40,483 nucleotides of DNA, taken from the IMG/VR virus record IMGVR_UViG_3300037458_000312. One strand, 5' to 3'. Numbering within the stretch: position 1 is the stretch's first letter; each line of letters opens with the position of its first letter. The notes beneath the pieces were generated by a model that was not told the origin of the DNA, did not search any database, and saw nothing but the letters and a program-made list of their open reading frames with translations. This DNA is from a virus. Positions 12,702 to 40,483 of the stretch are shown here, piece by piece. The position numbers were made by a program, and so were the translations under genes.

Positions 12702-12703
12702 GC

Positions 12704-19924: not shown

Positions 19925-19936
19925 AAGGACAGAATC

Positions 19937-20905: not shown

Positions 20906-20933
20906 AGCGTCTGAGTACGCTACCTTGGGCGGG

Positions 20934-20959: not shown

Positions 20960-20960
20960 G

Positions 20961-26314: not shown

Positions 26315-26317
26315 CAC

Positions 26318-26917
26318 ATGGCGCTTGCGAACTACACGGACCTGAAGGCGGCGGTAGCGGCGTGGCTCGCCCGTAGTGACCTCACATCGCAAATCCCCGA
26401 CTTCGTCACGCTGTGCGAGGCGAAGCTGAATCGTCTGCTGCGTTGCCGGCAGATGGAGCAGCGGAGCACGGCGACGGCTACGGAATTTATGGAGTTGCCG
26501 ACGGGGTTTCTCGAGCTTCGCAATATCCAGCTAAACGAAACGCCCAAGGTGCCGTTGTCGCTGATGGCTCCAGAGTACGGTGATCTCGTCTACAGCGGAG
26601 CGACCGGAAATCCGCTGTACTACGCGATCCTCGCCAATCAGTTGCAGTTGATCCCGGCGCCGGATGGAACGTACACGGTGGAGGTTGATTATTACGAAGT
26701 GATCCCGCCGATGGCGAGCAATGCGACCAACTGGCTGCTGACGGCGGCGCCTGACATTTACCTGTACGGGTCGCTGCTCGAGGCGTCGGGTTATTTGCAG
26801 GATGACCCGCGGGTGCCCGCGTGGAATGCGGCGTATACGCAGGTATTGCAGCAATTGCAGTCCGCTGATCGGCGGGCTAAGTGGAGTGGCTCGCAGATGG
26901 TAGTGCGGCCGGCTTAG
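26318..26917 (+). CDS. Head-tail adaptor / head-completion protein (candidate)
   Basis: YTDLKAAVAAWLARSDLTSQIPDFVTLCEAKLNRLLR pattern typical of podovirus connector-region proteins; first gene after the cassette. Confidence 0.45.
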   Translation: MALANYTDLKAAVAAWLARSDLTSQIPDFVTLCEAKLNRLLRCRQMEQRSTATATEFMELPTGFLELRNIQLNETPKVPLSLMAPEYGDLVYSGATGNPLYYAILANQLQLIPAPDGTYTVEVDYYEVIPPMASNATNWLLTAAPDIYLYGSLLEASGYLQDDPRVPAWNAAYTQVLQQLQSADRRAKWSGSQMVVRPA

Positions 26918-26928
26918 GAGAATGAGAG

Positions 26929-27357
26929 ATGGCATTGGATCTTGATTATTCTGCGGCGCTGCTAAAAGCCCAGATGGACGCAATCACGACGACGGTAGGC
27001 AATGCAGCGTTGCTGCGCATTTATGGCGGCACCAAGCCTGCCGGTCCTGGCACTACGACGGCAGAAACATTGTTGGCCGAGTTGACGTGCGGTAGCCCGT
27101 TTGCAAGCGGGGCCACTTCAGCAGTCCCGAGCGTGCTCACGGTTACGGACCCGACAACTGCCAATGCTTCCGCATCGGGCACGCCAACGTGGTGGCGCAT
27201 TGCGGCATCTGGCGCAGCAGCGGGAGCGGCAGGATTCATTGATGGTACAGCGGGGCAATCGGGTACTGCAGGCGTGGATTACGAGATGATTATCGGAGCC
27301 ACCACTTCCGGTCAGCCTGTCAACGTTACAGCTTTCACGCTTACCAGTGGGACGTAA
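26929..27357 (+). CDS. Virion-region protein, Thr/Ala/Gly-rich
   Basis: Track ORF; genomic context. Confidence 0.5.
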   Translation: MALDLDYSAALLKAQMDAITTTVGNAALLRIYGGTKPAGPGTTTAETLLAELTCGSPFASGATSAVPSVLTVTDPTTANASASGTPTWWRIAASGAAAGAAGFIDGTAGQSGTAGVDYEMIIGATTSGQPVNVTAFTLTSGT

Positions 27358-27365
27358 GCAGTAAC

Positions 27366-27584
27366 GTGCTCCCTCCTGCCAGCCTCTTTGACGACGTGGT
27401 GCTGCTGGCCACGCTCAAGTCGATCAGTTGTCACTTCGACGGCGGGCAGCGGTGCGAGATCAAGTGGGTGATCGACGGCGCGCACGGGCACGAGGGGCAA
27501 CTGCGGGTGCAGACGGTGAGCAAAGAGCAGGCGGAGTTGCTGAAGGCGGGCGACGTGTACGGGTTACACCTTAGGAGATTGTGA
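27366..27584 (+). CDS. Hypothetical small protein (GTG start)
   Basis: Track ORF. Confidence 0.4.
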   Translation: MLPPASLFDDVVLLATLKSISCHFDGGQRCEIKWVIDGAHGHEGQLRVQTVSKEQAELLKAGDVYGLHLRRL

Positions 27585-28069
27585 TGGCTCTATCGGTTGA
27601 GCAGTTGGCAACACTCAAGGCGGCCATCGCTGCCGACCCGGTGCTCAATGCGCTGCCAAACAATACTGACAGCGCGTTCGAGATTGCCTATCAGATGAAT
27701 CAGCCGGCCAGCCCTGACTTCATCGTGTGGAAGTCGAACGTGTCGGTCGACAAAATCATGCGCAACGGCATGGCATGGGACAGGGTCGACAATTTGTCGG
27801 TAGGCAAGGCGCGAATTTGGGATTGGATGACGCGCCTTGGCGTCTTCGACGCCAGCAAGGCTAACATCCGCGCTGGAATCGACGCCGCTTGGGTTGGCAC
27901 CGCCGCCGATCTCGCGGTCAGGGCGACGGTGTACACGCACTGCAAGCGCAAAGCTACGCGCTGCGAGAAGTTGCTGGCATCGGGAACCGGCAGCGAGGCG
28001 GCGCCGGCAACGATGACGTTCGAAGGCAATCTGTCGTACCAAGACGCATTCAACGCAAGGAATAGTTAA
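27584..28069 (+). CDS. Virion-region protein
   Basis: ATG 27584 follows AGGAG and overlaps the upstream TGA. Confidence 0.5.
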   Translation: MALSVEQLATLKAAIAADPVLNALPNNTDSAFEIAYQMNQPASPDFIVWKSNVSVDKIMRNGMAWDRVDNLSVGKARIWDWMTRLGVFDASKANIRAGIDAAWVGTAADLAVRATVYTHCKRKATRCEKLLASGTGSEAAPATMTFEGNLSYQDAFNARNS

Positions 28070-28071
28070 TC

Positions 28072-28596
28072 ATGGCCGGCGACATCAAAGGCAAGTACAG
28101 CGCCGCCTCGACGGCAATGACGGTGACGAACTTGCACTCGCTGGCTTCGTCGCAGACGTGGATCGCGGGCTGGACTAGCGCGAGTGTCGCCAATACCAGC
28201 AACGTCGACCTCGACTATCTGGTGGGCGCTACGTTCACCACGCACGCCAGCAACCGACAGGCTGGGTCGATCAACATCTGGGTCATCGCCTCGCTGAACG
28301 ACACGCCGACGTGGCCGACAACGGCAAGCGGAACGCCGGGAACCGAGGGCGCACTGTCGTTCACGGCAGCGGAACAGGTCAACGCCTGCGCTCGCTTGCT
28401 CGGGTCGATTACAGTCAACAACACCGCCTCGCAGGTCTACGCCTTCCCGCAGACATCCATCGCGCAATTGTTCGGCTATGTGCCGACGCACTGGTGCCTG
28501 TACATCGCGCAAAACGCGGCGACAACTACCGCTGCCGGATTGGCGTCAAGTGGATCAGCGGTGTACTACACGCGCACCATCAACCAATACACCTGA
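28072..28596 (+). CDS. Virion-region protein, Ser/Thr-rich
   Basis: Track ORF. Confidence 0.5.
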   Translation: MAGDIKGKYSAASTAMTVTNLHSLASSQTWIAGWTSASVANTSNVDLDYLVGATFTTHASNRQAGSINIWVIASLNDTPTWPTTASGTPGTEGALSFTAAEQVNACARLLGSITVNNTASQVYAFPQTSIAQLFGYVPTHWCLYIAQNAATTTAAGLASSGSAVYYTRTINQYT

Positions 28597-28645
28597 TCGT
28601 GCTCCGCTTCGCTCTCTCCGCTAACCCGCTTGAGGTGGACGGCTG

Positions 28646-29926
28646 ATGGCGCGCACGCGGCAACCGCAGGGGGCGGCGGCGCTCAGTAGATACTTTGCGG
28701 AAAACGCATCGGTCGTTTATTGCCCGTCACTTGGTGCGCGCAATCTGGTCAATGGCAAGGCTCTTACGGTTGGCTCGACGCCGCCGACGCTGACGCCAAC
28801 AAAGGATGGTCTTGGGTCCAAGTGGGACACCAGCACACATTTGTCGCATGTCGTGTTGGGGAATGCCAATGAGCTTTACTCATCAACATCGGCGACATTG
28901 TTGTTGCTGCGTAACTTTTGGGGGATTGCATCTGAATCCGCTGAGTTTGGTTTCAATGTCTCCACGAGTGAGCGGTTTTTATGTCACGCGCCGTGGTCGG
29001 ATGGAAACTTGTATTTCGATCCGAGCAACGCTTCCACAAATCGCGTTACGGTTTCCGGGCAAACGTGGACAGCAGGAAAAACGGATGCGCTGGCGTTTGG
29101 ATCCTCGACCACCGGGCGCGGCACTGAGGTATGGCGTGACGGCAAGTTGATTGGATCGGGGGCGGCTACCACGCTAGACATGGAGGCGCAGCCCTTTTAC
29201 TTTGGGGGAATGCCTAAGGGTTCTGAAGTTGAAATTAATCTAAACCCAACTCAATCAAGCGGTCTGCTGATTGCGCTGTTCCCGCGCGAGTTGCCGCAAG
29301 AGCTAATCAGAGACTGGAGCGCGAACCCGTGGGGCGTCACATTCGCCCCGCAGCGCCGCCTCTGGATTCAGCTTGGCGCGGCGGCGGGGGGCGGGGTTGA
29401 TGCCGATGTCGCTGGTACGCAGGCGACAGATGTTGGTGCAATAGCCGTAGAGGCCACTACCGGCGCAGCATTAGCAGGAACACAAGCGACAGATGTTGGC
29501 GCCATAACAGTTGAAGCAACAACGGGCGCTGCCATCGCTGGCACGCAGGCGGGTGATGTTGGAGCAATAACAGCAGAGGCCACTACCGGAGCGGACATTG
29601 CTGGCGTACAGGCCAGCGATAGGGCTGCGGTAGAAGTCACTGCCAGCACGGGCGAAACAGAAGCGGTTATTGCTGGGGCGCAGGCGAGCGATGTTGGCGC
29701 TGTCGATGTAGAGGCTACGCTTGGTCTGTCCATTGCGGGCACGCAAGCAAGCGATCTTGGTTACATCGTTGTTGAGGCAACATTGCCGGCCACAATGGCC
29801 GGAACGCAAATGAGTGACGTTGCAGCTATCGCGGTGCTAGGAACGAGCATTTGGACCGATGTCGGCGTAAGTGCGGCGACGTGGACGGATGTGGGCGGGG
29901 CATCCTCTATTTGGACGGACGTGTAA
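28646..29926 (+). CDS. Tail fiber/decoration-like protein: LamG/ConA-like N-terminal domain plus seven 21-aa tandem repeats plus 3x WTDVG
   Basis: The N-terminal ~240 aa fit a Laminin_G_3-like pattern (…WTAGKTDALAFGSS…EVWRDGKLIG). Repeats are seen directly in the translation. Confidence 0.55.
   Translation: MARTRQPQGAAALSRYFAENASVVYCPSLGARNLVNGKALTVGSTPPTLTPTKDGLGSKWDTSTHLSHVVLGNANELYSSTSATLLLLRNFWGIASESAEFGFNVSTSERFLCHAPWSDGNLYFDPSNASTNRVTVSGQTWTAGKTDALAFGSSTTGRGTEVWRDGKLIGSGAATTLDMEAQPFYFGGMPKGSEVEINLNPTQSSGLLIALFPRELPQELIRDWSANPWGVTFAPQRRLWIQLGAAAGGGVDADVAGTQATDVGAIAVEATTGAALAGTQATDVGAITVEATTGAAIAGTQAGDVGAITAEATTGADIAGVQASDRAAVEVTASTGETEAVIAGAQASDVGAVDVEATLGLSIAGTQASDLGYIVVEATLPATMAGTQMSDVAAIAVLGTSIWTDVGVSAATWTDVGGASSIWTDV
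29411..29848 (+). repeat. In-frame imperfect tandem repeat, about 63 bp x 7 (AGTQA[ST]DVGAI.VEATTGA.I)
   Basis: Read from the translation and DNA; units diverge at synonymous sites. Confidence 0.85.
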
Positions 29927-31422
29927 TGCCGACGCAAATTGCTCCGGTGGTGTATTGCCCTGATCTTGACTCGAGGAACATCCCGGGATCGGCGGTGGAC
30001 ATGAAATATTGGGCGCCCCTGCGCTCGGGTTTCATGGGCAGCGTCGGCATTGTCGATCTGTGGACAACGGTTTATCTGGTGACGCTGGCGAAGACGTTTC
30101 GCAGCGTATCCGGCGGGACGGCGCGGTTTATCGTGTTTGGCGATACGACGATCGACGAGTATTCCGCAACCGGCACCAAGACCAACCGCGGCACGGGCTA
30201 CACCACGGGGAACCTCGGCTGGAGCGCAACGCAGTGGGGCGACCAGATCATCGCCACCAACTACTCCGACGCTCCGCAGTCATCGACGGGCGCCGGTTTT
30301 ACCGCGTTGTCTGGCTCGCCGCCGAAGGCGCGGTTGGTGGCGTCCAACATAAACTTTGTCATGCTGGCCGATACCAATGATGGAGTAGCGGCCTATGCGG
30401 ACGAGGTGTTTTGGAGCGGAATCCAGAACCCGGTGGCGTGGACGCCAAGCCTCGCCACGCAGTGCGGGAGAATCCGGCTGCTGGACGCACCGGGCCCGAT
30501 TACGCAGCTTGTCGCGTTCAGAGACAAGTTTTATGCGTTCAAGGAAAACTCGATCTTTGTCGGCGAGTACGTCGGACCGCCATATTTCTTCCAATGGCGG
30601 TTGATCTCGTCGCGCATCGGGGCGTGCGGTTACTACAACCAGGGCGTAACCGAGTGCAATGATCGTCTGTACTTCGCCCACGCCAGCGGATTATACGAGT
30701 TCGATGGGGCGCAACTGCGCAACGTCGGCGAGCCCGTGTGGCGAACGATCCTGGACGCTACGGGATTCGGCGGCAACCCCAAGACCGGGACAACAGGGGC
30801 GCCGTTGTCCACGATGCGGTTAGTGGTGGAGGATGTAGAGGGCGTGGTGTGGTTGATGGCGTACACGTTGCTCAGTCCCAACTACATTCCCTACACCTGG
30901 GGCTATAACACGCTCACCGGCAAGTGGGCCGCGGTTGGAGAGGATGCAACGTCGGCGGATTTACTGGCCCCGGCAACGTGGGTGCAGACGACGACGAGCG
31001 ACATGCGCAAGTTTCTCGGGTCGGCCGCCAACGCAGCGGGGCGCGTGTGGAGGGTGAGCAATGTCTACACGCCGAGCAAGTTGCAGGAGTTTCGCTATCC
31101 TGCCGATTGGACGGTGGCGGGGAGCCTGACTACGGGGCTGGCCGGATCGATCGAGCAATCAACGACCATTACCGGGCTGCAATATCGGATCGTTTTCGGG
31201 TCGGATGCCACGCCGTTTGCCAGTTGTTCGTTCAACGGCTACGCAACGGAAACGAAGCTCACTAACGCAACGTCCGCATCGGGTGCGGTGAATGCCGATC
31301 TTGATCGGTTCGATGTTACGCATTCGGCGCGCTTTCACAATGCGGTGCTCACGGGCACGGTCGGAGAGACGTGCATTCTGGCCGGCATTGGCCTGGAAGT
31401 ACCGCCGCGCGGGGTGCGCTGA
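29926..31422 (+). CDS. Large tail-associated structural protein (function unknown)
   Basis: ATG 29926 overlaps the upstream TAA (TAATG); 498 aa. Confidence 0.5.
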   Translation: MPTQIAPVVYCPDLDSRNIPGSAVDMKYWAPLRSGFMGSVGIVDLWTTVYLVTLAKTFRSVSGGTARFIVFGDTTIDEYSATGTKTNRGTGYTTGNLGWSATQWGDQIIATNYSDAPQSSTGAGFTALSGSPPKARLVASNINFVMLADTNDGVAAYADEVFWSGIQNPVAWTPSLATQCGRIRLLDAPGPITQLVAFRDKFYAFKENSIFVGEYVGPPYFFQWRLISSRIGACGYYNQGVTECNDRLYFAHASGLYEFDGAQLRNVGEPVWRTILDATGFGGNPKTGTTGAPLSTMRLVVEDVEGVVWLMAYTLLSPNYIPYTWGYNTLTGKWAAVGEDATSADLLAPATWVQTTTSDMRKFLGSAANAAGRVWRVSNVYTPSKLQEFRYPADWTVAGSLTTGLAGSIEQSTTITGLQYRIVFGSDATPFASCSFNGYATETKLTNATSASGAVNADLDRFDVTHSARFHNAVLTGTVGETCILAGIGLEVPPRGVR

Positions 31423-31973
31423 TGTTCCGCTGGCCGGTTCTGCCGCGCGTGCCAGAGTGGGGCGGCAACGGCAATCGTCTGGTTGAGCGGTTGCGTGAGC
31501 TGTTTGTGGAGTACGCCAAGATCGGGCGGCAGGATCAGTGCCCGCCTACGCTGCGGCGGACGATGGCGGCAACGCAGGCGGTATCGGCGAACGCGGCGAC
31601 CAAGGTGACGTTCGGCACTGCCGGCGGGTGGGACACGCACGGCTACTGGGACGCGACTAATTATCGGTACACGCCGCTGGACTACAGCGGCTACTACCGG
31701 GTGAGCGCCAAGTTGTCGTTCGATCCGATGACGGTGACGACGGCCAACCGGCGCTGCGCGATCTACGTCAACGGGGCCGAGTATTCGTCGGTCACGGTGC
31801 CGCAGACGACCGGGCTGCGGGTGATGGTGCTGACTACCGATCTGGTGGCGCTCAACGGTTCCACCGATTACGTCGAAGTGTTCTGCATCGCGGGGGATGC
31901 GGTGACGGTGGAAGCGGAAACCTACCGCACGTCGCTGGCGATCGAGTACGTCGGCGCAAATCAAATCCTCTGA
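31422..31973 (+). CDS. Tail fiber-like protein with a possible C1q/TNF-like jelly-roll C-terminus
   Basis: ATG 31422 overlaps the upstream TGA; YYRVSAKLSFDP...IYVNGAEYS...VEVFC pattern. Confidence 0.4.
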   Translation: MFRWPVLPRVPEWGGNGNRLVERLRELFVEYAKIGRQDQCPPTLRRTMAATQAVSANAATKVTFGTAGGWDTHGYWDATNYRYTPLDYSGYYRVSAKLSFDPMTVTTANRRCAIYVNGAEYSSVTVPQTTGLRVMVLTTDLVALNGSTDYVEVFCIAGDAVTVEAETYRTSLAIEYVGANQIL

Positions 31974-32386
31974 TGCTTTCTATTGCCGCGATGACGGGTC
32001 CGCAAGTGCGGCAGGAGTGGGGCTGGATCAGAAACGGGCTGCTCGAGATCATCGGGCGCTGCCAGGAGCGGTATAGCCCAGAAGATGTGTGGGTCGCCAT
32101 TCTCGGCAAGGATGCCTATGTGTGGCGCATTACGCTTGCGCACGACGATATTGGGTTTCTGGTGCTGCGGCAGCAGAGCGATCCTGATGGCCCGGTGCTG
32201 TTCATCTGGTGCGTTTGGGCGGAGCCCGGTGCGCTGGCCAAGCACAGCGCGGAGTTGTTTGAGCGGTTAAAGGAAGTGGCACACAGGATTGGTGCCGTGC
32301 GCTTGCGGATGGAGTCATCGCGCAAGGGTTGGGCTGCGCTGCCGTTGTTTGACGAGCGAGCCGTCATTTACGAAGCCGAGGTGTGA
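31973..32386 (+). CDS. Hypothetical protein (GNAT-like fold possible)
   Basis: Track ORF; TGATG overlap; the fold similarity is weak. Confidence 0.4.
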   Translation: MLSIAAMTGPQVRQEWGWIRNGLLEIIGRCQERYSPEDVWVAILGKDAYVWRITLAHDDIGFLVLRQQSDPDGPVLFIWCVWAEPGALAKHSAELFERLKEVAHRIGAVRLRMESSRKGWAALPLFDERAVIYEAEV

Positions 32387-32387
32387 A

Positions 32388-33455
32388 ATGGGCGGGAACA
32401 GCGGGGCCGTGCAGTCTTCCACGCAGGTATCGGAGCCGTGGGCGGAACTCAAAACGCCGATGTTGGAAACGATCAGTGCGGCCAAGAATCTCTACAGCCA
32501 GCCTTACCAGCAATACAGCGGGCAGACGGTCGCCGGCCCGTCAGATAGCACCCTGTCCGGGTATGACCTGGGAACGATGCGGGCCGTCATGGGGGCGCCC
32601 GATCTCAACGCCGCGCGAGGCTCGACGGCGGACATCAGCGGCGGCAACTTCTTTGGCGCCGGGCCGACGGCCACCAACAACTATCTGCAATCGCTGGCCG
32701 GCGGGACGGCGAATAGCCCGAGCGCGAGCAATGCGTGGCTGAACAGCACCGCGCAGGGCCAGAACCTTGCCGCCAACCCGTACCTCACGGATGCGTACAC
32801 CAACAACGCCATAGGATTCAACGCGCAGCAGATGGGCAACGCCTTCGCCACGGGGCAGGCGGCGCAGAACGACGCGCTGGCCGCGCGCGGAGGAGCCTTC
32901 GGCGGCAGTGCGTGGCAGCAGAAGCAGGGCGCGGACGCTGCGGCGATGGCGCAGCAGGTAGGCAACATGGCGAACCAGTACCAACTGGGCTTGCAGGGGA
33001 TGAAGTCGAGCGATTACAACAATGCGGTGCAGGCGGCGCTATCCGCGGCGGGGCAGCGGCAGGCGGCGTATGGCCAAGATACCAACACCGCGCTGAACGC
33101 CGCCGGGCTCCAGCAGGGCGCGTACCAATCCGACATGGGAAACATGCTCCAGGCGAATGCGCTAGCCGGGCAGTTGTCGCAGGACGATTGGCGCGGGGCG
33201 GATTACCTGCGCAGCATCGGCGCCCAGCAGGAGGGGTATCAGCAGAAGTTGCTGGATTCGGCCCGGGGCAGTTGGCAGGAGGCGATGAATGCACCCTATG
33301 CGCAGATGAACGCTTACAAGGACATCCTGGCGCAGTTTGGCGGCATGGGCAGTACCGGCACGCAGAGCCTGTACGGGGGCGGACAAAGCCCGCTTGGAAC
33401 GGTCGCCGGGTTGGGGCTGCTGGGCGCCGGGGCGTACAACGCATTCAGGGGATGA
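32388..33455 (+). CDS. Internal virion/ejection-type protein (Gln/Ala/Asn/Gly-rich)
   Basis: Internal ATG of track ORF 32289..33455; composition and podovirus gene order. Confidence 0.45.
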   Translation: MGGNSGAVQSSTQVSEPWAELKTPMLETISAAKNLYSQPYQQYSGQTVAGPSDSTLSGYDLGTMRAVMGAPDLNAARGSTADISGGNFFGAGPTATNNYLQSLAGGTANSPSASNAWLNSTAQGQNLAANPYLTDAYTNNAIGFNAQQMGNAFATGQAAQNDALAARGGAFGGSAWQQKQGADAAAMAQQVGNMANQYQLGLQGMKSSDYNNAVQAALSAAGQRQAAYGQDTNTALNAAGLQQGAYQSDMGNMLQANALAGQLSQDDWRGADYLRSIGAQQEGYQQKLLDSARGSWQEAMNAPYAQMNAYKDILAQFGGMGSTGTQSLYGGGQSPLGTVAGLGLLGAGAYNAFRG

Positions 33456-33459
33456 CGCT

Positions 33460-34047
33460 ATGAGCGGCGCGGGCAAGTGGATCAAAAAGCATCCGATGGA
33501 AACGGCGCTTATTTTGGGGGTAGCAACAGGCGGCGTGGGAATGCTCGGAGCGGCCGGCGCCGGGGCGGCGGGTGCCGCAGGAGCAGGGGCGGCCGCGGGT
33601 GGCGCTGCTCCGTTGGGCTTGGGCACGGCGTCCCTCTTTGGTGCTGAAGCAGGGCTCGGAGCCGGGCTTATGGGGGCCGCCCCAGCCGGGTCGCTAGGTA
33701 GCTCCCTTCTTGCTCCTGCGGTGGCCGCAGAGGGGCTGGGAGGTGGCTTTGCGGGTCTTGCCGGGGGGGCTTCACCGCTCGCCGCTGAGGCAGCGATGGG
33801 CGTTGCGCCGATGACCGGGTGGGAAAAGTTCGCCGCCGGCATGGGCAAGATGGAACCCTACGCCAAGCTCGCGGGGCAGGCGCAGGGACTGCTATCGCCC
33901 GATCAACAGCAGCAGATGCCGCCGATGATGCAACCGCGCCCGCAGATGATGGCGCAGGGTGGCGGTGCGGGAATGCTGCCTTACGGTGGCGCGGAGGAAG
34001 AGGAGTTGCGGCGGCGGATGCAGCAGAGCGGGAGGTTCTATGGCTAG
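33460..34047 (+). CDS. Gly/Ala-rich internal virion protein candidate
   Basis: Internal ATG of track ORF 33337..34047; hydrophobic Gly/Ala tracts. Confidence 0.45.
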   Translation: MSGAGKWIKKHPMETALILGVATGGVGMLGAAGAGAAGAAGAGAAAGGAAPLGLGTASLFGAEAGLGAGLMGAAPAGSLGSSLLAPAVAAEGLGGGFAGLAGGASPLAAEAAMGVAPMTGWEKFAAGMGKMEPYAKLAGQAQGLLSPDQQQQMPPMMQPRPQMMAQGGGAGMLPYGGAEEEELRRRMQQSGRFYG

Positions 34048-34993
34048 TAATACGCCCCCCCCGGGCCCGGGGTATGTGTGGGTAGACGGCGCGTTCTATG
34101 GCGGCGAGGGCGGATACCAATTGCCCGGCTCATGGGTGCCCAATCCCTACGCCACACTAAACGAGCAGCCGGGGCCGGTGGCGCCGCCGGTCGGGCAGCC
34201 TGGGACGACGGTGCCGGGCGTTACGGACCCCACGCAGATTGCGACGACGATCAACAAGAACTGGGCGCCGTCGGCTCCGCTACAGGCGCAATTGGCCGCG
34301 CTGCTCACAACTCGCAATTCGGGGTACGGGGCGAATCCGGGGTACATGCCGCCGGTATCGCCTGGGCGCTTCCAATTCTCGGCCACGGCTCCGGTGCCGC
34401 GGGATGCGCCGCTGGGGTGGGGCCGCTATCCTGGGGTGGATGGAGCCCCGGGCAACGCGCCGTGGCTTGCCGGGCAGACCGCGCCGCGTCCGGTGTGGGG
34501 GAATACCGGAGGGGGCTATACGCCGCCTACGATGCCATCGGTGCCGCCAACGCCGCCGCCGAATTACATCGGTGCCCCGCGCACTGGCGGCACGGGCACG
34601 ACGATCGCGCCGCCGGGAACGCCACGCAATCCCAATAGCACGCCGGGCTATACGAACAGCACGGGCACGGGCGGGCAGACGCGGGTGCCGCTTGCTCCGG
34701 CGCCGTATAACCCCGGCAACGTGTTCACCAGCCCGATCCAGAACGTCACCGGCACGTCCACGGTGGCGCAGTCCACGGGGCGGAACTACTACAACCCGCA
34801 GACGTTCGAGCACAGTATCGAGGCGCTGCCGCAGGAATTGCAGGGGGCGTACATCCCGCCGCAATACATTGGCCACGCGCTCCCCGCGGGGGCGTTCAAG
34901 TCTTTGTGGCCTAACAGCGTGGGCACGGATTGGGTGAAGGCCAAGCCCGAGGGGTGGTCGCCGACGTGGCGGCCGACGAACACGAGGGGTTGA
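34040..34993 (+). CDS. Pro/Gly-rich internal virion protein candidate; its C-terminal domain is duplicated at 594..866
   Basis: Internal ATG of track ORF 33959..34993. Confidence 0.45.
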   Translation: MASNTPPPGPGYVWVDGAFYGGEGGYQLPGSWVPNPYATLNEQPGPVAPPVGQPGTTVPGVTDPTQIATTINKNWAPSAPLQAQLAALLTTRNSGYGANPGYMPPVSPGRFQFSATAPVPRDAPLGWGRYPGVDGAPGNAPWLAGQTAPRPVWGNTGGGYTPPTMPSVPPTPPPNYIGAPRTGGTGTTIAPPGTPRNPNSTPGYTNSTGTGGQTRVPLAPAPYNPGNVFTSPIQNVTGTSTVAQSTGRNYYNPQTFEHSIEALPQELQGAYIPPQYIGHALPAGAFKSLWPNSVGTDWVKAKPEGWSPTWRPTNTRG

Positions 34994-34994
34994 G

Positions 34995-36278
34995 ATGGCT
35001 TACGATGACGTTTACTCCGAGGAAGATCGGCGCCGGGCGCTCACGCAGGGGTTGCTCGGGGCGGGGCTTGCCATGCTGGGGGCGCGCAAGGGCTCCGAGT
35101 TCAACGCCTTCGGGCAGGCCGGGCTGCTAGGCTTGGGTGGCTACAACACCGCACTGCGGGATGCTACGAACGCGCGTGAAGAGCAGGCGATGCGAAAAAT
35201 GCGCGAGCAGCAGTTTGCGATGCAAAGGGCGCAGTGGGAGCAAGCGCAGGCCGAGCGCGAGGGGATGCGGCAGGCGCATCAGGCGGCGATTATTCCTTCC
35301 GTGCCGGGTGGCGAGGCCGAGCCGCGCGAGGGCGGGATGACGCCGGGGCTGCCGGGTTGGTTCAACGATGCGGCGTACATCAATGCTTTGCGGACGAATC
35401 CCAACATCGACCCGGCGAAAGCATTGGCGTATCAGCAGTTGATCGCCAAGGACACGGCGTTCGACAAGCCCAAACCCGAGCACTGGACGCCGGCCAGCCT
35501 TGCCGAATACGCGCGCACGCGCAACCCGGCGTCGTTGGTGCCGGTGACAAATCCAGAGGCGTCGGCGGTAGGAAAGATCAACCCGAGCGACTTCACACCG
35601 GCCAGCGTTGCGGCCTTTCTGTCTGGTGGCGGCAAGAATTATCAACTGCTGGTGCCGGTAGACAAGCGCCCGGTGAGCAACGTAAGCATCAAGAATGTTG
35701 CCGAAACGGAAGAGGACAAGACGATCGGCAAGGGGCGCGGGGAGGCATTCGTGGCGATCAATGCCGGAGCCACTAAAGCCCGACACAAAATCACGTCATT
35801 GGCGGCCATTGAGTCGCTTGTGGGTGACGTTGAGACAAGCCCCCTAACGCCCATTGGGCTCAAGGTGTCGGGTGTGTTAAAGGGGGCAATGGGAATAGAC
35901 ATTGATCCATCATTGCCGCGTAAGCAGGCCGCAGAAACGATTATGAATCGCTTGGCTCTTGAAGCTAGAAGCACGGCCGACGGCGGGGGGATGCCTGGCG
36001 CCATGTCGGACGCGGATCGTGAGTTCTTGCGCAATATGAATCCGACACTTTCGCAAACAAAGGAAGGGCGTTCGTTGATCGTGAAGGTGCAGTCCAGGCT
36101 CGCCAAGCGCGAGCAGGATCTAGCGCAATGGGCGCGCGAGTACCGGGCGCAACGTGGTCGGTTCGACGAGGGTTTTCAAGATTACGCGGCAGAAAAGGCA
36201 GCACAAAGCCCTCTGTTTTCTGATCTTAATCTTGGCCAAACGAGCCGTGGATTCACTTATCTCGGAACGGTGAAGTAA
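34995..36278 (+). CDS. Internal virion/ejection-type protein
   Basis: Track ORF; genomic context. Confidence 0.45.
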   Translation: MAYDDVYSEEDRRRALTQGLLGAGLAMLGARKGSEFNAFGQAGLLGLGGYNTALRDATNAREEQAMRKMREQQFAMQRAQWEQAQAEREGMRQAHQAAIIPSVPGGEAEPREGGMTPGLPGWFNDAAYINALRTNPNIDPAKALAYQQLIAKDTAFDKPKPEHWTPASLAEYARTRNPASLVPVTNPEASAVGKINPSDFTPASVAAFLSGGGKNYQLLVPVDKRPVSNVSIKNVAETEEDKTIGKGRGEAFVAINAGATKARHKITSLAAIESLVGDVETSPLTPIGLKVSGVLKGAMGIDIDPSLPRKQAAETIMNRLALEARSTADGGGMPGAMSDADREFLRNMNPTLSQTKEGRSLIVKVQSRLAKREQDLAQWAREYRAQRGRFDEGFQDYAAEKAAQSPLFSDLNLGQTSRGFTYLGTVK

Positions 36279-36289
36279 GGGGGGGCGTC

Positions 36290-38770
36290 ATGCGTCATAG
36301 AATCCGCGTGCCCGATGGCACAGTGGTTGAGGTTGACGCGCCCGACGGCGCCACGCAGGAGGAAATTGTTGCCTTTGCTGAGAGCAATTACAAGGCGCAG
36401 AAGCCTGCGGCAGCAGCGTCATCTACTGGTGCCGATGTTGCCAAGGCGGCGGCCTATGCAGTGCCGAAAGCTGCCGTTGGCATGGCGGGACTTCCTGCTG
36501 ATTTACTCAAAATTCTCAATGCTGGCGGCGAATCGTTGGCGGCCAAGATTTATGGCGGCAAGCCCGAGGACTATCGCGGCATAGGACTAAACGTCCCTGC
36601 GGGCGGATCGGACATTCGCGGCGCGATAGAAAAGGTGACGGGGCCGTGGTTTGATCCGCAAACGCGAGCGGGGAAGGCAACGGATACGGCTGTCCAGACT
36701 GCTGCGTTAATGGGCAAGAACTGGATGACGGCGCCCAAGGAAGCGGCCAAGATCGTTGCAGGAACGACGCTAGGCACCGAGTCGGCCGGGGCGGCAACTG
36801 ACGACAACCCGTGGATGCGGATGCTTGGAGGTCTTTTTGGTGGCGGGGTTCCTGCCGTTGCCAATGCCGTGCGCAGCAGAACGGGGCAAGTGGTTCGTGA
36901 TGCTATTGGAGCGCCAACGCAGGCCGAGATTGATGCAGCGCTGGCGATGCAGGCTAGTGGACGCGCCAAGGGCGTGCCATTGATGGGCACCGAATCGCTT
37001 GATAGGGGATCGCAGTTGGCTAGTGCCATTTATGCGAGCCCGACGGGCAATAGCATCCTCGAGAGGTTCTTATCACAACGGCCCGAGCAGGTTAAGTCGG
37101 CAGTAGAGGGCGGGCTGCTGGCGCAAACCGGGCCGCGTACTGCGCCAGCCGCCAATGCGGCGCGAGCGCAAGAGGCAGCAACAGCAGTTATTGGCAACGC
37201 CGAGCGGGCGCGCACGAGGGCCGTTAACAATCTTTATGATCGGTCGCAATGGGCAACCATCCCACCGCAGGCGATGAGGCCAGTGGCCAACGAAATACAA
37301 AACCAACTGTTCAAAACGCCGATAGACTCACCGGCAGATGCAGTTATCGGGCGCTGGCATAAGCAAGCATTCCCATATGCAGTAGAGGCACCCGAGGCGG
37401 AAACGGCTGCGAGAGCAGTGCGTGGCGCGTCACGTTCTGTTGATGTACAGCAGGACGACGTGATTACTGCTATTCGCAAGTTGGGTGGCATCAATCCGGC
37501 AGACGAAGCGGTTGGTTCTTTGGCAAAGGCCAATCCGTTCCCCAACGATCCGAGGTTCGGCCCGGTGTGGCGTCGTCCTGGATTCGGCAATTCCGTAAGC
37601 AACAAGACAGTAGCCGGGCATTCACTAGATGACATGGCGGCGAAGTTGTACGAACATGGCTATATTCCAGAGCGCAATCCTGATCTAGTAATGGATGCGG
37701 TAGCGGATTCGACGATGGGACGCCCGTTGTACTCTGTTTATCGAGAGGTGCAGAACGTCGATCCGTTGGCGCAGGCGATTGACAAGCTCACTGCGCAGTT
37801 GGCATCCAAGAACGCGCCCAAAGCAACTGTTCCTGTTGCGCCTGAAGCGGCATTGCCAGAAACGAATGTTGGACGACTGACAAAGTTGTATCAGACGCTG
37901 CGCGATGAGCGGACATTGCCTGCAATCGGCGCGACTTCAGAACAAAAAGCGGCGTCGTATCCTGCCGGAAAAGTGCAGGACGTGTTGGGCGACGTGCTGC
38001 GGGCCAACAATCCCGACTTTCGGCGCGCTAACGAGCGATTCTCGGCCTACACCGAAAAAGTGGTGAATCCGCTAACGGCGGGGCCGATTGGGGTAATTGC
38101 CGGGCGGACGGGGTTTGATCCGGCAGCGCCGTCGCAGGTGCCGCGCATTCTTAACGCCATTGCCGATCCAAACGTGGCGCGTCCTGAAACGATCCGCCAT
38201 GTCTACTCGCGGCTTAACCGGGTAGATAAGCAAGCGTTTCCAGGCATCGTACAGACGCATCTGGAAAACCAGTTGAACGCCGCGTTAACGGACATTCGTT
38301 CCGGCGGCAACCCAACAGCGGGGGCGAAGTTCCGGCAGGCGATCGTCGGCACGCCGCAGGAGCAAACGAACTTCGATGAGATGATGCGCGGCGTGGCCAA
38401 GGCGCGCGGGGCGAATCCAGACGATCTGGTGCGCGGCGCTAACAACCTGCTGCAAGTGTTGGAGCGTACCGGGCGCACGCCCGGTATTGGCTCGCAAACG
38501 CAACCAAGGCAAGAAATTGCCAAAGAGCTAGGCAAGACAAAGATCGGTGATGTAGCGATGGTGGCGTCTGCGGCGCCGACCAAGACGGCGGTCGCACGGT
38601 GGAACGACTTGATCTTGCGGCGCCGTTATGAAGGGTTGGCGCAGGCGCTTACCGCAGAGGATTCGGTACAAACGCTGCTCAAGCTCGCCAAGACAAACCC
38701 GAATGGAATCACGGCCAGTTACTACGCGGCCATGCTGTTAGGGCTGGATGAGGCTACATCCGGTCAGTAA
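36290..38770 (+). CDS. Large internal virion/ejection-type protein (826 aa)
   Basis: Largest ORF; last structural gene before the lysis genes, as in podoviruses. No lysozyme motif recognised. Confidence 0.5.
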   Translation: MRHRIRVPDGTVVEVDAPDGATQEEIVAFAESNYKAQKPAAAASSTGADVAKAAAYAVPKAAVGMAGLPADLLKILNAGGESLAAKIYGGKPEDYRGIGLNVPAGGSDIRGAIEKVTGPWFDPQTRAGKATDTAVQTAALMGKNWMTAPKEAAKIVAGTTLGTESAGAATDDNPWMRMLGGLFGGGVPAVANAVRSRTGQVVRDAIGAPTQAEIDAALAMQASGRAKGVPLMGTESLDRGSQLASAIYASPTGNSILERFLSQRPEQVKSAVEGGLLAQTGPRTAPAANAARAQEAATAVIGNAERARTRAVNNLYDRSQWATIPPQAMRPVANEIQNQLFKTPIDSPADAVIGRWHKQAFPYAVEAPEAETAARAVRGASRSVDVQQDDVITAIRKLGGINPADEAVGSLAKANPFPNDPRFGPVWRRPGFGNSVSNKTVAGHSLDDMAAKLYEHGYIPERNPDLVMDAVADSTMGRPLYSVYREVQNVDPLAQAIDKLTAQLASKNAPKATVPVAPEAALPETNVGRLTKLYQTLRDERTLPAIGATSEQKAASYPAGKVQDVLGDVLRANNPDFRRANERFSAYTEKVVNPLTAGPIGVIAGRTGFDPAAPSQVPRILNAIADPNVARPETIRHVYSRLNRVDKQAFPGIVQTHLENQLNAALTDIRSGGNPTAGAKFRQAIVGTPQEQTNFDEMMRGVAKARGANPDDLVRGANNLLQVLERTGRTPGIGSQTQPRQEIAKELGKTKIGDVAMVASAAPTKTAVARWNDLILRRRYEGLAQALTAEDSVQTLLKLAKTNPNGITASYYAAMLLGLDEATSGQ

Positions 38771-38878
38771 TGTCTAGCAGCAGGATCGCCACGATTGCGA
38801 TCCCGGCGATGATGAGGAATGCGGTAATCATCCGCCAATCCTACGCCTGCCCATCCCAAACAACAATGGAGCCCACCC

Positions 38879-39316
38879 GTGGTTGATCACGAGGCAACAG
38901 AGCGCGAGATTCTGCGGTTGGTAGAGCAGGCTGACGGCCACGATCGGGCGATGTTGTTGATCATCTACCGGATGCACCAGGAGTTGATTGCCAACACGCT
39001 CAGCACGAGACAGATTGCTGCCGCGGCCGAGGATCATGCGTCTACGCTGCGACAGCACGCGCAGGACGAGATGGCGCTGATCAACCAAATCAGAGGCGGT
39101 TGGCGTGCGGCCACAGTGGCATTCGGGATTATCACGTTGCTGTTAGGTGCGCTGCAAGGGATGGCGATGCGCGAGATCAACATGGCACGGGATACGATCA
39201 TGGTGAACACCGGGCGCATCTACGCGCTTGAGGCCGAGAACGCGGTGCAGAAGGATCAACTGTGGAGCATTCGCATGAAGCTGCGGATGCAGGAATTGGC
39301 TAACGGGAAAGAATGA
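38879..39316 (+). CDS. Membrane protein with a central TM and a C-terminal coiled coil (lysis accessory candidate); start uncertain
   Basis: GTG start in the track. TM is AATVAFGIITLLLGALQGMAM, then IYALEAENAVQKDQLWSIRMKLRMQEL. Confidence 0.4.
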   Translation: MVDHEATEREILRLVEQADGHDRAMLLIIYRMHQELIANTLSTRQIAAAAEDHASTLRQHAQDEMALINQIRGGWRAATVAFGIITLLLGALQGMAMREINMARDTIMVNTGRIYALEAENAVQKDQLWSIRMKLRMQELANGKE

Positions 39317-39597
39317 TGGACATCCTGCCGGGACTGCTCGCCTTCAGCCAATGGCTGGACGAAAAGGGCAAGGCGATCAAGCGTGGCGCGCAGGTTCCGA
39401 TCGGGATACTGCAATCGCCGGAAAAGCTCAATGATGTCACCGCGTGGCTGGACAACAAGAAGCGGCAGATCGTCACCAACGCCAGCGATCCGGCGCTGCT
39501 CTACACGCGGGCGAACGAGGACGCGCGCAAGTTCCAGCGAGAGGAGCTAGAGAACTGGGGCCTGCTCGGAGCCGGAGCCTACGAGCAAGAGCAATGA
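39313..39597 (+). CDS. Hypothetical protein in the lysis region
   Basis: Track ORF; ATGA coupled at both ends. Confidence 0.45.
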   Translation: MMDILPGLLAFSQWLDEKGKAIKRGAQVPIGILQSPEKLNDVTAWLDNKKRQIVTNASDPALLYTRANEDARKFQREELENWGLLGAGAYEQEQ

Positions 39598-40483
39598 CCC
39601 TCTCTCTGGAAGGCTTGCGGGCGTTTGTCGATAACGCCAACGTCGCCGCGTCCCTGCGTTGCGTGCGCCGCAGCGAACTCCCCAAGCAGTACGCGCAGAC
39701 GGATGACGCCTACAGGGTGCTGTTCTGTGGTGAACTGATCGACGACCTGTCGCGCCATCCGCGCATTGCCAAGATGTCTCCGTGGGGCTGGACGAGCGCA
39801 GCCGGGGCTTATCAGGCGATGGCGGCCGTCCCCGGCAAGGTCACTACCGACACATGGGGCGACTTCTGCCGCGACATGGGCACGACGGCAGACGAAATGC
39901 CGTTCGACAAGGATCATCAGGACTGCTTCGCCGTCTGGTGCCTGCGCCGTCGCCACGCGCTACAGGACGCCATACAAGGCCGTTTTGAGGCCGTGGTGGA
40001 GAAATGTAGCTGGGAGTGGGCATCCTGGCCGCCGGGGCGCTACGGGCAGCCTACGGTGACGCTAGAGGCTCTGCGCGAGGTGTACGAAGAATACGGCGGC
40101 ACCTACGCCCTGTCCGATCTCATCCAGCCCGAGGCGCCTATAGAGGACCGCCCGCAGTCGTCGCGCCCCCCGGAGTCACCACAGGAGTCTCGTATGCCCA
40201 TCCCTGCCATCATCCTCGGGTTGATCCAGGCCGCTGCCAGTGTGCTGCCGGTCATCGCGCAGATCCGCGGCGACAAGGAACAGTCGTCGGCAACCAAGAA
40301 CGTCGCCATTGCCAGCAAGGTGCTGGACGTTGCGGTGACGACGCTGGGCGCAACCAACCATCAGGCCGCCGTCGAAGCGGTGCAAGTCGATCCGGTGGCG
40401 CGGGAGAAAGTGGATGCGGCACTGCGGGCGCAGTTCTTCGACCTGATGAAATATGCCCAGGAGCAGGAAACTGCGGCTTGGGA
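39594..40483 (+). CDS. Lambda R-like lysozyme/lytic transglycosylase (GH104-type). It has no stop and continues in frame into the 3-TM holin (internal RBS and ATG at 40194), running off the window end and wrapping to 434.
   Basis: Hand translation shows no stop from 39594 to 40483. RSEL...FCGELIDDLSRHPR...SAAGAYQ...CSWEWASWPPGRYGQP parallels lambda R (WSEGT...GGELFTDYSDHPR...TGAGRYQ...CSNIWASLPGAGYGQ). AGGAG lies 6 nt before ATG 40194. Confidence 0.7.
   Translation, partial: MTLSLEGLRAFVDNANVAASLRCVRRSELPKQYAQTDDAYRVLFCGELIDDLSRHPRIAKMSPWGWTSAAGAYQAMAAVPGKVTTDTWGDFCRDMGTTADEMPFDKDHQDCFAVWCLRRRHALQDAIQGRFEAVVEKCSWEWASWPPGRYGQPTVTLEALREVYEEYGGTYALSDLIQPEAPIEDRPQSSRPPESPQESRMPIPAIILGLIQAAASVLPVIAQIRGDKEQSSATKNVAIASKVLDVAVTTLGATNHQAAVEAVQVDPVAREKVDAALRAQFFDLMKYAQEQETAAW
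40357..40483. repeat. Second copy of the terminal overlap (identical to nt 1-127)
   Basis: Direct comparison. Confidence 0.9.

Follow-up and report, generated by a model that had tools for sequence, protein, structure and literature searches.

The window analysed here is the whole of a 40,483-nt stretch of viral DNA (IMG/VR record IMGVR_UViG_3300037458_000312), in which bases 1-127 are identical to bases 40357-40483. This 127-bp terminal repeat gives a circular contig of 40,356 bp, from an uncultured, podovirus-like tailed phage of ~40.4 kb. A 398-codon ORF with no stop inside runs from an ATG at 39594 to 40483, resumes at 128 and ends with a TGA at 432-434. The features of the locus, in order around the circle, are as follows.

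38879..39316, + strand: 145-aa protein with one central TM segment and a C-terminal coiled-coil-like region; candidate holin or lysis partner, two genes upstream of the fused gene
39313..39597, + strand: 94-aa ORF whose stop overlaps the fused-gene start
39594..40483, + strand: fused gene, first 890 nt (aa 1-297), resuming at 128
39594..40106, + strand: lambda-R-type lytic transglycosylase domain, aa 1-171 (phrog_90, 1AM7/3D3D, Foldseek)
40107..40193, + strand: disordered Pro/Ser/Glu-rich linker, aa 172-200, with a conserved QPxAPIEDR motif
40183..40187, + strand: internal Shine-Dalgarno (SD) AGGAG, followed by the spacer TCTCGT (40188-40193), 6 nt before the ATG
40194..40196, + strand: nested start ATG, Met201, of the predicted 198-aa module (from conservation of Met/Val and SD)
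40197..40265, + strand: helix 1, aa 202-224, hydrophobic with a narrow polar face (KD 2.19)
40266..40483, then 128..191, + strand: acidic all-helical soluble domain, aa 225-318 (pLDDT about 90)
1..434, + strand: end of the fused gene; 1-127 duplicate 40357-40483 (assembly overlap), the unique part is 128-434, TGA 432-434
192..269, + strand: TM2, aa 319-344 (KD 2.55; at least 1.6 in 97% of the family)
312..368, + strand: TM3, aa 359-377, after a 14-aa loop (KD 1.86)
369..434, + strand: basic C-terminal tail, aa 378-398, and stop (family mean K+R 3.7, net +1.9)
431..604, + strand: 57-aa DUF1508 gene whose ATG overlaps the fused-gene stop; the same neighbour occurs in the related locus L013

The first-pass annotation of this DNA had read an endolysin that continues in frame, without a stop, into a membrane protein opened by a nested AGGAG-N6-ATG at 40194, and had placed the end of the lysozyme domain near 40110, a Pro/Ser/Glu-rich linker behind it and three TM segments in the 198-aa nested product. 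All of these elements are present in the sequence: the 398 codons stay open across the junction to 434, the enzyme domain extends to about aa 171 (nt 40106), the linker covers aa 172-200, and hydrophobic stretches lie at aa 202-224, 319-344 and 359-377. Because the fused gene is contiguous at 3001-4197 in independent assemblies (L009-L011), the wrap-around join is real. The ATG at 39594 shares the sequence ATGA with the stop codon (TGA) of the 94-aa ORF before it, and homologues begin MTLSLEGL, which supports this start. The AGGAG of the nested start is among the strongest SDs in this genome; the fused gene's own start has no SD, so the full-length product is probably initiated by coupling to the upstream ORF, and the overlap of the two reading frames likewise suggests translational coupling. 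No internal promoter or terminator signals were found within the fused gene. By eye, the N-terminus of the 94-aa ORF resembles the start of a 330-aa protein upstream of the fusion in L012.

Residues 1-171 matched the phrog_90 endolysin family (1.8e-22) and the structures 1AM7/3D3D (E 6e-9 for the single sequence, E 4e-27 for the profile), and the predicted structure of this domain, with pLDDT above 95, aligned with the lambda lysozyme fold in Foldseek (E 8e-7, TM 0.81-0.83). Furthermore, Glu28 is invariant in 56 homologues and aligns with the catalytic Glu19 of lambda (profile offset 18 to 9, with Y40/Y33 as anchor). These sequence, profile and fold matches agree with the lambda-R-like assignment made earlier; the N-terminal half is a lambda-R-type lytic transglycosylase with a GH104-like lysozyme fold, its activity being predicted. 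Behind it, pLDDT falls below 50 at residues 186-204, in the region of the linker. A SAR-type signal anchor is absent, since the N-terminus (MTLSLEGLRAFVDN...) is hydrophilic and no TM segment precedes aa 202. The relatives P0087-P0089 have an N-terminal TM segment and lack the module.

The C-terminal 198 aa matched only phrog_1544, whose function is not annotated, over 6-191 of its 200 positions. No match was obtained to holin families in Pfam, PHROGs or NCBIfam, with Pfam and NCBIfam giving no family at all, and the predicted structure found nothing significant in the PDB or BFVD (best, Vibrio phage VHML ORF20 at E 0.08). Across the family, helix 1 is of borderline hydrophobicity (median KD 1.64, only 56% at or above 1.6) and low pLDDT; the soluble domain that follows has a mean net charge of -2.3 and a median length of 95 aa, and the TM2-TM3 loop has a median of 13 aa. 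The basic tail points to a cytoplasmic C-terminus.

An identical 398-aa protein was found on 7 contigs from at least three sources (JGI, NCBI and Logan), and the frame is also intact in ~85 full-length homologues of 350-450 aa, whose identity goes down to 29%. The module alone was represented by 161 sequences at E<=1e-3 after 50% clustering; among the 124 representatives examined, 94 were fused to an enzyme domain, which was lambda-type in 33, GH24 in 22, GH19 in 14-27 and SLT-like in 2 (P0018, P0024). The missing stop is thus genuine and conserved, a stop being normally absent in the homologous phages, and the first-pass framing of the gene as a singular oddity has to be given up, since the architecture is widespread. 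Halves also move independently: P0007 shares 95% identity with the gene in its N half and 23% in its C half, while P0009 shares 38% and 89%. Enzyme and module halves have, as judged from these alignments, been exchanged between lineages at the linker, and the module is best described as a predicted endolysin-partner membrane protein, mostly fused in frame to any of four muralytic domain types. About a hundred divergent lineages of phages share this layout, which is previously undescribed.

One unfused module was verified. In L016/L017 (P0109), 'ACGGAGGATTAAATG' joins a 181-aa GH19 endolysin to a 192-aa module; the TAA stop of the GH19 gene lies directly 5' of the module ATG, so that the module is a separate gene with the same SD spacing. 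This was the only verified separate module gene among five stand-alone calls inspected. The other four (P0091, P0096, P0112 and P0123) were rejected as ends of contigs under 1.1 kb, the frame being open upstream in P0091, P0096 and P0112. With four of five calls at short contig ends, unfused genes are rare and their frequency is uncertain. Among cultured phages, tblastn of two module variants against 50,697 records gave no match, no record (0) held a full-length relative at 80% coverage or more, and searches with full-length GH24- and GH19-type fusions gave no genuine full-length relative. Two long GH19 matches were set aside: the 136-aa protein encoded downstream in Achromobacter phage 2-1 has four TM segments and is unrelated, and in Mycobacterium phage Julie1 the match falls inside LysA and the 'holin' there is unrelated. 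Searches for related loci found nothing among viral contigs (with P0001), only 3 loci in metagenomes and, in genomes, only lysozyme-domain relatives (Roseateles, Aquabacterium and others), all without the module.

The junction between the two halves carries the signals of a start site. GGAG stands 6-9 nt 5' of the nested start in 7/7 distinct fused genes with DNA sequence, compared with 2.8% of other codons at the same spacing and 0/49 other in-frame ATGs; since this test draws on related sequences, its seven cases are only partly independent. Of the 94 fused representatives, 76 have Met and 15 have Val at the junction (Met or Val in 91/94), and Met also occupies it in 42/56 close homologues; both Val junctions checked (2/2) are GTG with GGAG-N6, and Glu occupies position -3 relative to the junction residue in 42/76. 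In L015, Trp-Ser codons in place of Glu make the GGAG. In addition, short module gene calls begin at the aligned Met201 position or a few residues off, typically with MPxP, and the RNA near the nested start is less structured than its shuffles (z +1.6). Comparison among the relatives indicates that the nested start is under selection, with SD and start codon kept far beyond chance. What the first-pass annotation had proposed as a nested start holds as a conserved signal, SD with ATG or GTG being kept across fusions to four enzyme families, and two products are very probably made from the one gene.

It is quite improbable that only the 398-aa membrane-anchored endolysin matters, and that the internal Met and the purine-rich codons persist because the protein needs them or because they are the relic of a former gene boundary. 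Endolysins with a C-terminal TMD that is needed for lysis are known (PMC7143992, PMC8943055, PMC8879335), and the strong conservation of the fusion itself would suit a single product. However, the junction alternates between Met and Val, the latter written as GTG, which are the two start codons; the spacing of the GGAG is fixed even where the amino acids differ, as in L015, and its frequency is far above background; the module is found on its own as a gene whose SD has the same spacing; and a relic would not persist at 20-30% identity.

A gene for a small TM protein lies 1-3 genes upstream of the module gene at 8/8 loci with usable flanks. In the window this is the 145-aa protein, which has no family match; in L014 it is a canonical LydA-type holin (PF16083/phrog_6384) that abuts the fusion. 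The upstream small TM proteins of different loci showed no detectable kinship, except L012 with L013, and no common partner family. Given a separate holin or small TM protein upstream at all eight loci, the module need not form holes. Like holins, the module is predicted to be a small protein of the inner membrane, has one or more TMDs and a basic tail, and adjoins or is fused to the endolysin at every locus. It has no homology to a known holin family; at 198 aa, with a soluble helical domain of ~95 aa, it is larger than most holins, and it is not the sole candidate for hole formation in the cassette, since other small TM genes lie upstream. The earlier label of 'holin' is not established as an identity, given the missing homology, the atypical size and the upstream TM genes. 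The chances that the module is a holin- or antiholin-like membrane partner are about even, and it is unlikely to be the sole holin.

A lipobox-type o-spanin was not found near the gene at any of the 8 loci, and a lipobox scan gave only spurious antisense matches, in line with the earlier report that no spanin pair could be recognised nearby. In the unfused relative the module sits 3' of the endolysin, the usual place of spanins, in the order small TM protein, small secreted protein, endolysin, module (L016). Together with cassettes that lack Rz/Rz1 and with the separate holin of L014, this could suggest that the module serves the outer-membrane step as a spanin or disruptin substitute. Such a role is hard to credit, because the charges put the ~95-aa domain and the tail in the cytoplasm and leave a periplasmic loop of just 13 aa; the module has no signal peptide, lipobox or other lipoprotein signal, no N-terminal TM segment followed by a long periplasmic domain, no periplasmic coiled-coil architecture and no similarity to spanin families.

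Ahead of the gene, at 32382-38770, lies a series of genes for putative ejection or internal proteins, with a phrog_4287 'DNA ejection protein', and the fused protein also matched phrog_17230, 'tail fiber protein/lysozyme'. Gene VII of PRD1 has the same architecture, encoding the transglycosylase P7 with the anchor P14 in its 3' part (PMC6750898), and by this analogy the product would be a virion-borne, muralytic, membrane-inserting ejection protein with a nested anchor partner. We regard such an entry function as highly improbable. The portal, terminase and capsid genes are those of a tailed phage, and nothing in the genome points to an internal membrane. Proteins packaged into a capsid would not be expected to carry strongly hydrophobic TM hairpins. 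A canonical holin abuts the L014 fusion, the endolysin of the unfused relative is an ordinary GH19 enzyme of 181 aa, and the muralytic domain of the fused gene is the only one among the window genes tested. A role in lysis is likely. An artefact in which a lost stop or a frameshift in sequencing or assembly merged two ordinary genes has a negligible chance: although the gene spans the contig junction and the relative P0019 has a frameshift-like aberrant C-terminus, the identical protein is contiguous on 7 contigs from different projects, and the ~85 full-length homologues and 94/124 distant representatives are fused as well.

The explanation that we favour, with a probability of about 0.6 that includes topology and mechanism, is that ORF 39594..434 is a late, two-product lysis gene for a tethered enzyme and a free module. 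Translation from both starts, topology, co-assembly and timing would then be as follows. The 398-aa product would consist of the lambda-R-type enzyme, the disordered Pro-rich linker and the 198-aa membrane module, and the AGGAG-N6-ATG would yield the module alone, probably in excess. Judged from charge, helix 1 would be N-out or just peripheral, the ~95-aa acidic domain cytoplasmic, TM2 and TM3 a hairpin with a 13-aa periplasmic loop, and the basic tail cytoplasmic. The free module would place its helix 1 in the inner membrane and form oligomers there, and may either make holes as holins do or assist the small TM protein encoded upstream. The full-length form, unable to push a 200-aa enzyme across the membrane, would join the assembly through two TM helices, with its tethered enzyme facing the cytoplasm, much as S107 relates to S105 in lambda. 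Once the membrane is breached, the enzyme would already be in place at the lesion and gain access to murein. We know of no pathway that exports a 200-aa N-terminal domain via a downstream TM segment, a point that counts against this reading and applies to Enc34 and M4Lys as well.

A bolder version of this mechanism would make the one ORF a complete device for lysis of inner membrane and murein: the abundant nested product would be a new class of three-helix holin and the full-length product its antiholin, with the endolysin as inhibitory N-terminal extension, so that triggering would at once turn the inhibitor into part of the hole and bring the enzyme to the lesion. The small TM proteins encoded upstream would then be accessory timers. 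We consider this version distinctly unlikely; if true, it would also explain the C-terminal-TMD endolysins Enc34, M4Lys and LysAP.

Lysis by phages of Gram-negative bacteria is taught as the work of separate holin, endolysin and spanin genes, with endolysins regarded as single globular domains. A survey of internal starts excluded these phages because their endolysins were held to be single globular domains in which internal starts were thought unlikely (PMC9430671). The family described here (161 representatives at 50% clustering) pairs an endolysin gene with a putative nested gene for a structurally orphan membrane protein, is widespread, and shows this layout with four unrelated enzyme folds. 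Current annotations name such ORFs 'muramidase / ElaB-YqjD-DUF883' or 'lysozyme' and overlook the nested product. The module may be a new membrane lysis factor, a candidate holin, antiholin or releasing factor, and the family offers a tractable model for how C-terminally anchored endolysins reach the cell wall.

Several known systems share parts of this layout. Lambda S105 and S107 arise from dual nested in-frame starts, the longer product being blocked from inserting TMD1, and are N-out/C-in proteins with three helices and a basic tail. The present gene shares with lambda S the nested in-frame starts and, by our predicted topology, the N-out/C-in arrangement of three hydrophobic helices with a basic tail. 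The lambda S products differ by 2 aa, whereas the two here would differ by 200 aa, the endolysin itself; moreover, there is no sequence similarity, and the module has an extra 95-aa cytoplasmic domain. PRD1 P7 and P14 belong to the membrane inside the virion and serve DNA entry, PRD1 lysis being left to other genes. P7 is a transglycosylase fused to an anchor, P14 is made alone from the 3' part, and a P7/P14 hetero-multimer has been proposed (PMC6750898). The likeness is one of architecture, with a transglycosylase, an anchor and, here as a prediction, a nested anchor-only product; unlike PRD1, this phage is tailed and the gene has a lysis-type context.

A natural fusion in one polypeptide, TpeE-holin::endolysin of Clostridium sporogenes, is known from six genomes (PMC9527704); there the order is reversed, with the holin N-terminal, the host is Gram-positive and a nested product was not reported. 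Caulobacter SpmX, a domesticated bacterial polarity factor, joins an N-terminal muramidase of phage type through a Pro-rich linker to two TM helices at the C-terminus, and its authors mention in passing phage muramidases with other TM segments (bioRxiv 10.1101/418723). The likeness to SpmX is in this domain layout, and the match of the L019 GH24 fusion to the SpmX model is confined to the enzyme domain.

Two-polypeptide endolysins with in-frame internal starts include Lys170, CTP1L, CD27L, phi2638A and Ms6 LysA, in which the two polypeptides form hetero-oligomers (PMC9430671, PMC4777826, PMC12203907). As in this group, one ORF here has an in-frame internal start with its ribosome-binding site ahead of a C-terminal non-catalytic domain, and would give a full-length enzyme and that domain alone. 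The group comes from Gram-positive and mycobacterial phages and its short product is a soluble cell-wall-binding domain; here the short product has a TM hairpin and no match to a CBD family, and would be an integral membrane protein.

The C-terminal-TMD endolysins comprise Hafnia phage Enc34 ORF39, Salmonella phage BSPM4 M4Lys, the Chi-like Siskin and Acidovorax phage AP1 LysAP; in the Enc34/M4Lys type the TMD is needed for lysis and the enzyme's membrane crossing is unexplained (PMC8943055, PMC7143992, PMC8879335). Like these proteins from phages of Gram-negative hosts, the fused product has an N-terminal muralytic domain without a signal peptide, a linker and C-terminal TM helices. Their anchors are one or two TM helices of ~25-60 aa, joined to PHA02564 or GH24 folds, and the available portions of those reports mention no nested start or free-standing anchor. 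In contrast, the anchor here is a module of 198 aa that includes a folded soluble domain, carries a conserved SD and start of its own and has partners from four enzyme families, and the catalytic domain is lambda-type rather than PHA02564-type, which sets it apart from Enc34 ORF39 by domain type. On the sequence evidence, the gene is best read as a variant of both the C-terminal-TMD endolysins and the internal-start endolysins.

The first and last 127 bases of the window (1-127 and 40357-40483) form an exact direct repeat, typical of circular assembly closure at k=127, and the contig is circularly closed with a true genome of 40,356 bp, compared with 40,350 and 40,651 bp in further assemblies of this phage. 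The fused gene begins at ATG 39594, which overlaps the TGA of the upstream 94-aa ORF, stays open through 40483, resumes at 128 and ends at TGA 432-434, giving 398 codons with no stop. The first-pass annotation had described an endolysin frame running without a stop into a holin-like membrane protein that continues across the contig junction, and a nested AGGAG-N6-ATG at 40194 opening a 198-aa protein with three hydrophobic segments; both were found as described. Seven contigs on record encode the identical protein of 398 aa, and the gene is contiguous, not split by a contig end, in the three sources shown (a JGI metagenome, an NCBI assembly and a Logan assembly). In addition, the comparison with homologues proposed in that annotation showed the fusion frame kept in ~85 proteins of 350-450 aa (93-100% query coverage, identity down to 29%; 5.8 billion proteins searched). 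A stop lost through read error was ruled out, since it would not recur on seven contigs and in ~85 full-length homologues.

Features of the fused gene and its product
aa 172-200: disordered Pro-rich linker (pLDDT below 50)
40122-40148 (aa 177-185): linker motif (L/I)QPAAPIE(D/E)R, from homologue alignments A1/A2
40183-40187: internal Shine-Dalgarno (SD) AGGAG, then six bases and ATG 40194 (Met201), start of the predicted 198-aa nested product
aa 202-224, 319-344 and 359-377: hydrophobic segments
431-604: DUF1508 (YegP-like) mini-gene, overlapping the fused-gene stop (ATGA)

Residues 1-171 matched phrog_90 'endolysin' (1.8e-22) and PDB 1AM7/3D3D (E 6e-9 with the single sequence, 4e-27 with the family profile), their AlphaFold model (pLDDT above 95) gave Foldseek TM values of 0.81-0.83, and Glu28, the counterpart of the lambda catalytic Glu19, was invariant. 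These results collectively agree with the lambda-R-like lysozyme noted at first reading and identify a predicted lambda-R-type lytic transglycosylase domain. Proteins P0087-P0089 (~230 aa) have the lambda-type domain behind an N-terminal TM of SAR or signal-anchor style, and protein P0075 pairs it with another C-terminal membrane segment weakly matching DUF7940 (E 0.0012, below the Pfam cut-off); this one catalytic domain thus has at least three ways of being directed to a membrane.

The membrane module (aa 201-398) matched only phrog_1544 ('unknown function'), over nearly the whole 200-position profile, and no relative was found in Pfam, NCBIfam, PDB sequences, PDB folds or BFVD folds. The module is predicted to be all-helical, the AlphaFold order being a low-confidence helix 1, a helical domain (pLDDT ~90), a long helix, a TM hairpin and a short tail helix. 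With the 198-aa query, an exhaustive HMMER search over 1.84 billion cluster representatives returned 161 proteins at E<=1e-3; among the 124 examined, 94 were of 300-465 aa with a C-terminal module, 6 were intermediate and 24 were ~165-212 aa. The N-terminal partners were all muralytic domains.

Muralytic partners of the module
Phage_lysozyme (GH24): 22 by Pfam
Glyco_hydro_19: 14 by Pfam, 27 by phmmer
lambda type: 33
SLT-like domain: 2

One SLT-like protein (P0018) carries a module 98% identical to that of the window. Homologue P0007 is 95% identical to the window protein in the enzyme half and 23% in the module, whereas P0009 and P0010 are 38% identical in the enzyme half and 89% in the module. 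By these comparisons the two halves have separate histories, with the linker as the exchange point. The linker motif is near-invariant even where enzyme halves or module halves are unrelated; it may mark a recombination joint, or act as a protease site or docking motif. HNH/NUMOD4 homing-endonuclease genes directly adjoin the fused gene in two related loci (L012 3322-3870 (-) and L013 3134-3598 (+)), which fits the mosaic exchange observed here.

To the nested start we then turned at the nucleotide level, reading junction DNA in roughly a dozen relatives; everything else on the junction comes from protein sequences. GGAG stood 6-9 nt 5' of the junction ATG in all seven distinct fused genes for which DNA was obtained.

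SD at the junction of the seven fused genes
Window: AGGAG-N6
L012: GAGGAG-N6
L013: GGAG-N6
L014: GAGGAGG, GGAG 9 nt upstream
L015: GGAG-N7
L002: GGAG-N6
L003: GGAG-N6

In the same genes such a motif preceded 2.8% of other codons and none of 49 other in-frame ATGs; the naive probability of 7/7 is 1e-11, a figure that overstates independence because the sequences are related. The L015 GGAG is encoded by Trp-Ser codons, not Glu, which points to constraint on nucleotides rather than protein. Among 56 close homologues, Met201 was kept in 42, Glu198 in 47 and Lys/Gln at 197 in 33. In 94 fused representatives sharing less than 50% pairwise identity, Met stood at the junction in 76 (42 of these with Glu at -3) and Val in 15, while Met occurs in 17% of random 10-residue windows. 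Both Val cases with DNA fetched, a GH24 and a GH19 fusion, proved to be GTG preceded by GGAG-N6, and the one property that Met and Val share at this position is a codon, ATG or GTG, able to start translation. Three truncated contigs also had GGAG and ATG at the module start with the frame open upstream. Taken together, these sequence patterns indicate that the nested start is under selection, and the strong internal start first noted in the window extends across its fused relatives. The internal SD is among the best in the window genome, and no SD precedes the gene's own start, nor the corresponding start in six of the seven homologues; more of the nested product than of the full-length protein is therefore probably made. 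RNA around the nested start was less structured than shuffled controls (z +1.6), and no internal promoter or terminator pattern was found within the fused gene.

An unfused relative was recovered from two samples (L016/L017). Its 181-aa GH19 endolysin ends in ACG GAG GAT TAA with the module ATG directly after, and the separate 192-aa module gene has its SD in the same place as in fused genes. By this alignment of signals, the two forms differ by essentially one stop codon, the fused form retaining the signals that initiate the downstream gene. Another four 'stand-alone' module calls lay on contigs under 1.1 kb; the three with DNA had an open frame upstream and were rejected as genuine stand-alone modules. 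True unfused genes thus appear to be a minority, the calls inspected being mostly contig-end pieces.

Several neighbouring features were also recorded. The DUF1508 mini-gene is a conserved neighbour of the fused gene: it lies in the same place in the locus of homologue P0046 (L013 2803-2967), and protein P0019 reads through into MKFIVYQG... sequence. The 94-aa ORF (39313-39597), which is coupled to the fused gene, resembles, by eye, the N-terminus of a 330-aa protein (L012 2350-3342; common pattern ...WLD.KKR......P.LL.TR.NEDAR..Q...) that sits at the equivalent position. The C-terminus of a 344-aa Pro-rich protein (34841-34990, …AYIPPQYIGHALPAGAFKSLWPNSVGTDWVKAKPEGWSPTWRP…) recurs in a 90-aa ORF at 594-866 (690-850, …AYIPPQYVGRPLPAGAFKSLWPNGAGIDWNKNKPENWTPDWRP…), a Trp/Pro-rich domain thus being duplicated on both sides of the lysis gene; neither protein had a family match. 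At 1703-1936 (-) and 1385-1666 (-), a small ORF has a precomputed match, in identical assemblies, to PF24729 Acb2_Tad1_hairpin, an anti-CBASS/Thoeris sponge-like domain, and its neighbour is a short fragment matching PF00145 DNA_methylase. The interval 21286-26314 (+), which separates the major capsid gene from those for virion proteins, holds five or six non-structural-looking genes. Among their products, one of 465 aa matches only phrog_36377 (unknown function) and one of 311 aa has a CNYRCRFC (CxxxCxxC, radical-SAM-like) motif; by this motif and by eye they look like sugar- or methyl-transfer enzymes, possibly for virion or host-surface modification.

We favor a role of the fused gene in lysis, with a probability of about 0.8. 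A virion-borne entry enzyme has to be considered: the gene follows a run of putative ejection/internal proteins, one matching phrog_4287 'DNA ejection protein', the portal is ~31% identical to those of LUZ24-like Pseudomonas podophages, and PRD1 P7/P14 has exactly the same architecture, a transglycosylase with a membrane anchor that is also made alone from the gene's 3' part (PMC6750898). However, the present phage is tailed, a canonical LydA-type holin (PF16083; phrog_6384, 785 and 1527) overlaps the fusion start in L014, the endolysin of the unfused relative is an ordinary small GH19 enzyme, and no further muralytic, holin or spanin family matched the window genes tested. Furthermore, 8/8 loci with usable flanks carry, 1-3 genes upstream of the fusion, a gene for a small TM protein; these proteins are mutually unrelated between loci, apart from L012 and L013, and holins typically are too.

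Within a lysis role, the first-pass annotation had called the nested product a holin. That it is a membrane protein encoded with an endolysin stands; the holin assignment is equivocal. In 180 sequences, K+R averaged 1.0 before helix 1 and 2.7 after it, 1.3 in the 13-aa TM2-TM3 loop and 3.7 in the tail, which fits an N-out/C-in layout with three helices and a basic tail like that of lambda S105. Helix 1 is marginally hydrophobic (median KD 1.64) and may be likened to the first helices of S105 and S21, which are dynamic. Against a holin are the size of the module (198 aa, including a ~95-aa acidic soluble domain), the lack of homology to any holin in family, sequence and fold searches, other candidate holins upstream of the fusion in every locus with usable flanks, canonical in L014, and the place of the module in the unfused locus, where spanins usually lie. 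A spanin fits poorly: the predicted location of the soluble domain is the cytoplasm, and a lipoprotein partner was not found, in line with the earlier remark that no recognisable spanin pair lies near the gene.

In the lysis reading, the free module would insert helix 1 and then oligomerise. In S107 an extra N-terminal charge blocks TMD1 insertion, and the full-length product would be formally like this antiholin. Having no signal peptide, the full-length protein would be unable to translocate its 200-aa N-terminal enzyme, a point that the Enc34 authors make for their own enzyme (PMC8943055), and so would join the assemblies as a two-TM subunit with the enzyme facing the cytoplasm. Whether the module or the upstream TM protein breached the membrane, the enzyme would already be at the lesion.

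We found no description in the literature of the module, the nested start or the pairing with four enzyme families, and tblastn detected no module copy in cultured phages (50,697-record collection). A small group of endolysins with C-terminal TMDs is known (Enc34 ORF39, M4Lys, Siskin and LysAP), in which the TMD is required for lysis and membrane crossing is unexplained (PMC8943055, PMC7143992, PMC8879335). In-frame internal starts yield a second polypeptide, a cell-wall-binding domain, in Gram-positive and mycobacterial endolysins, and a systematic survey omitted phages of Gram-negative hosts, where such starts were considered unlikely (PMC9430671). A C. sporogenes fusion joins holin and endolysin in the opposite order (PMC9527704). 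Caulobacter SpmX combines a muramidase, a Pro-rich linker and two TM helices, and its authors mentioned, without follow-up, phage muramidases fused to unrelated TM segments (bioRxiv 10.1101/418723).
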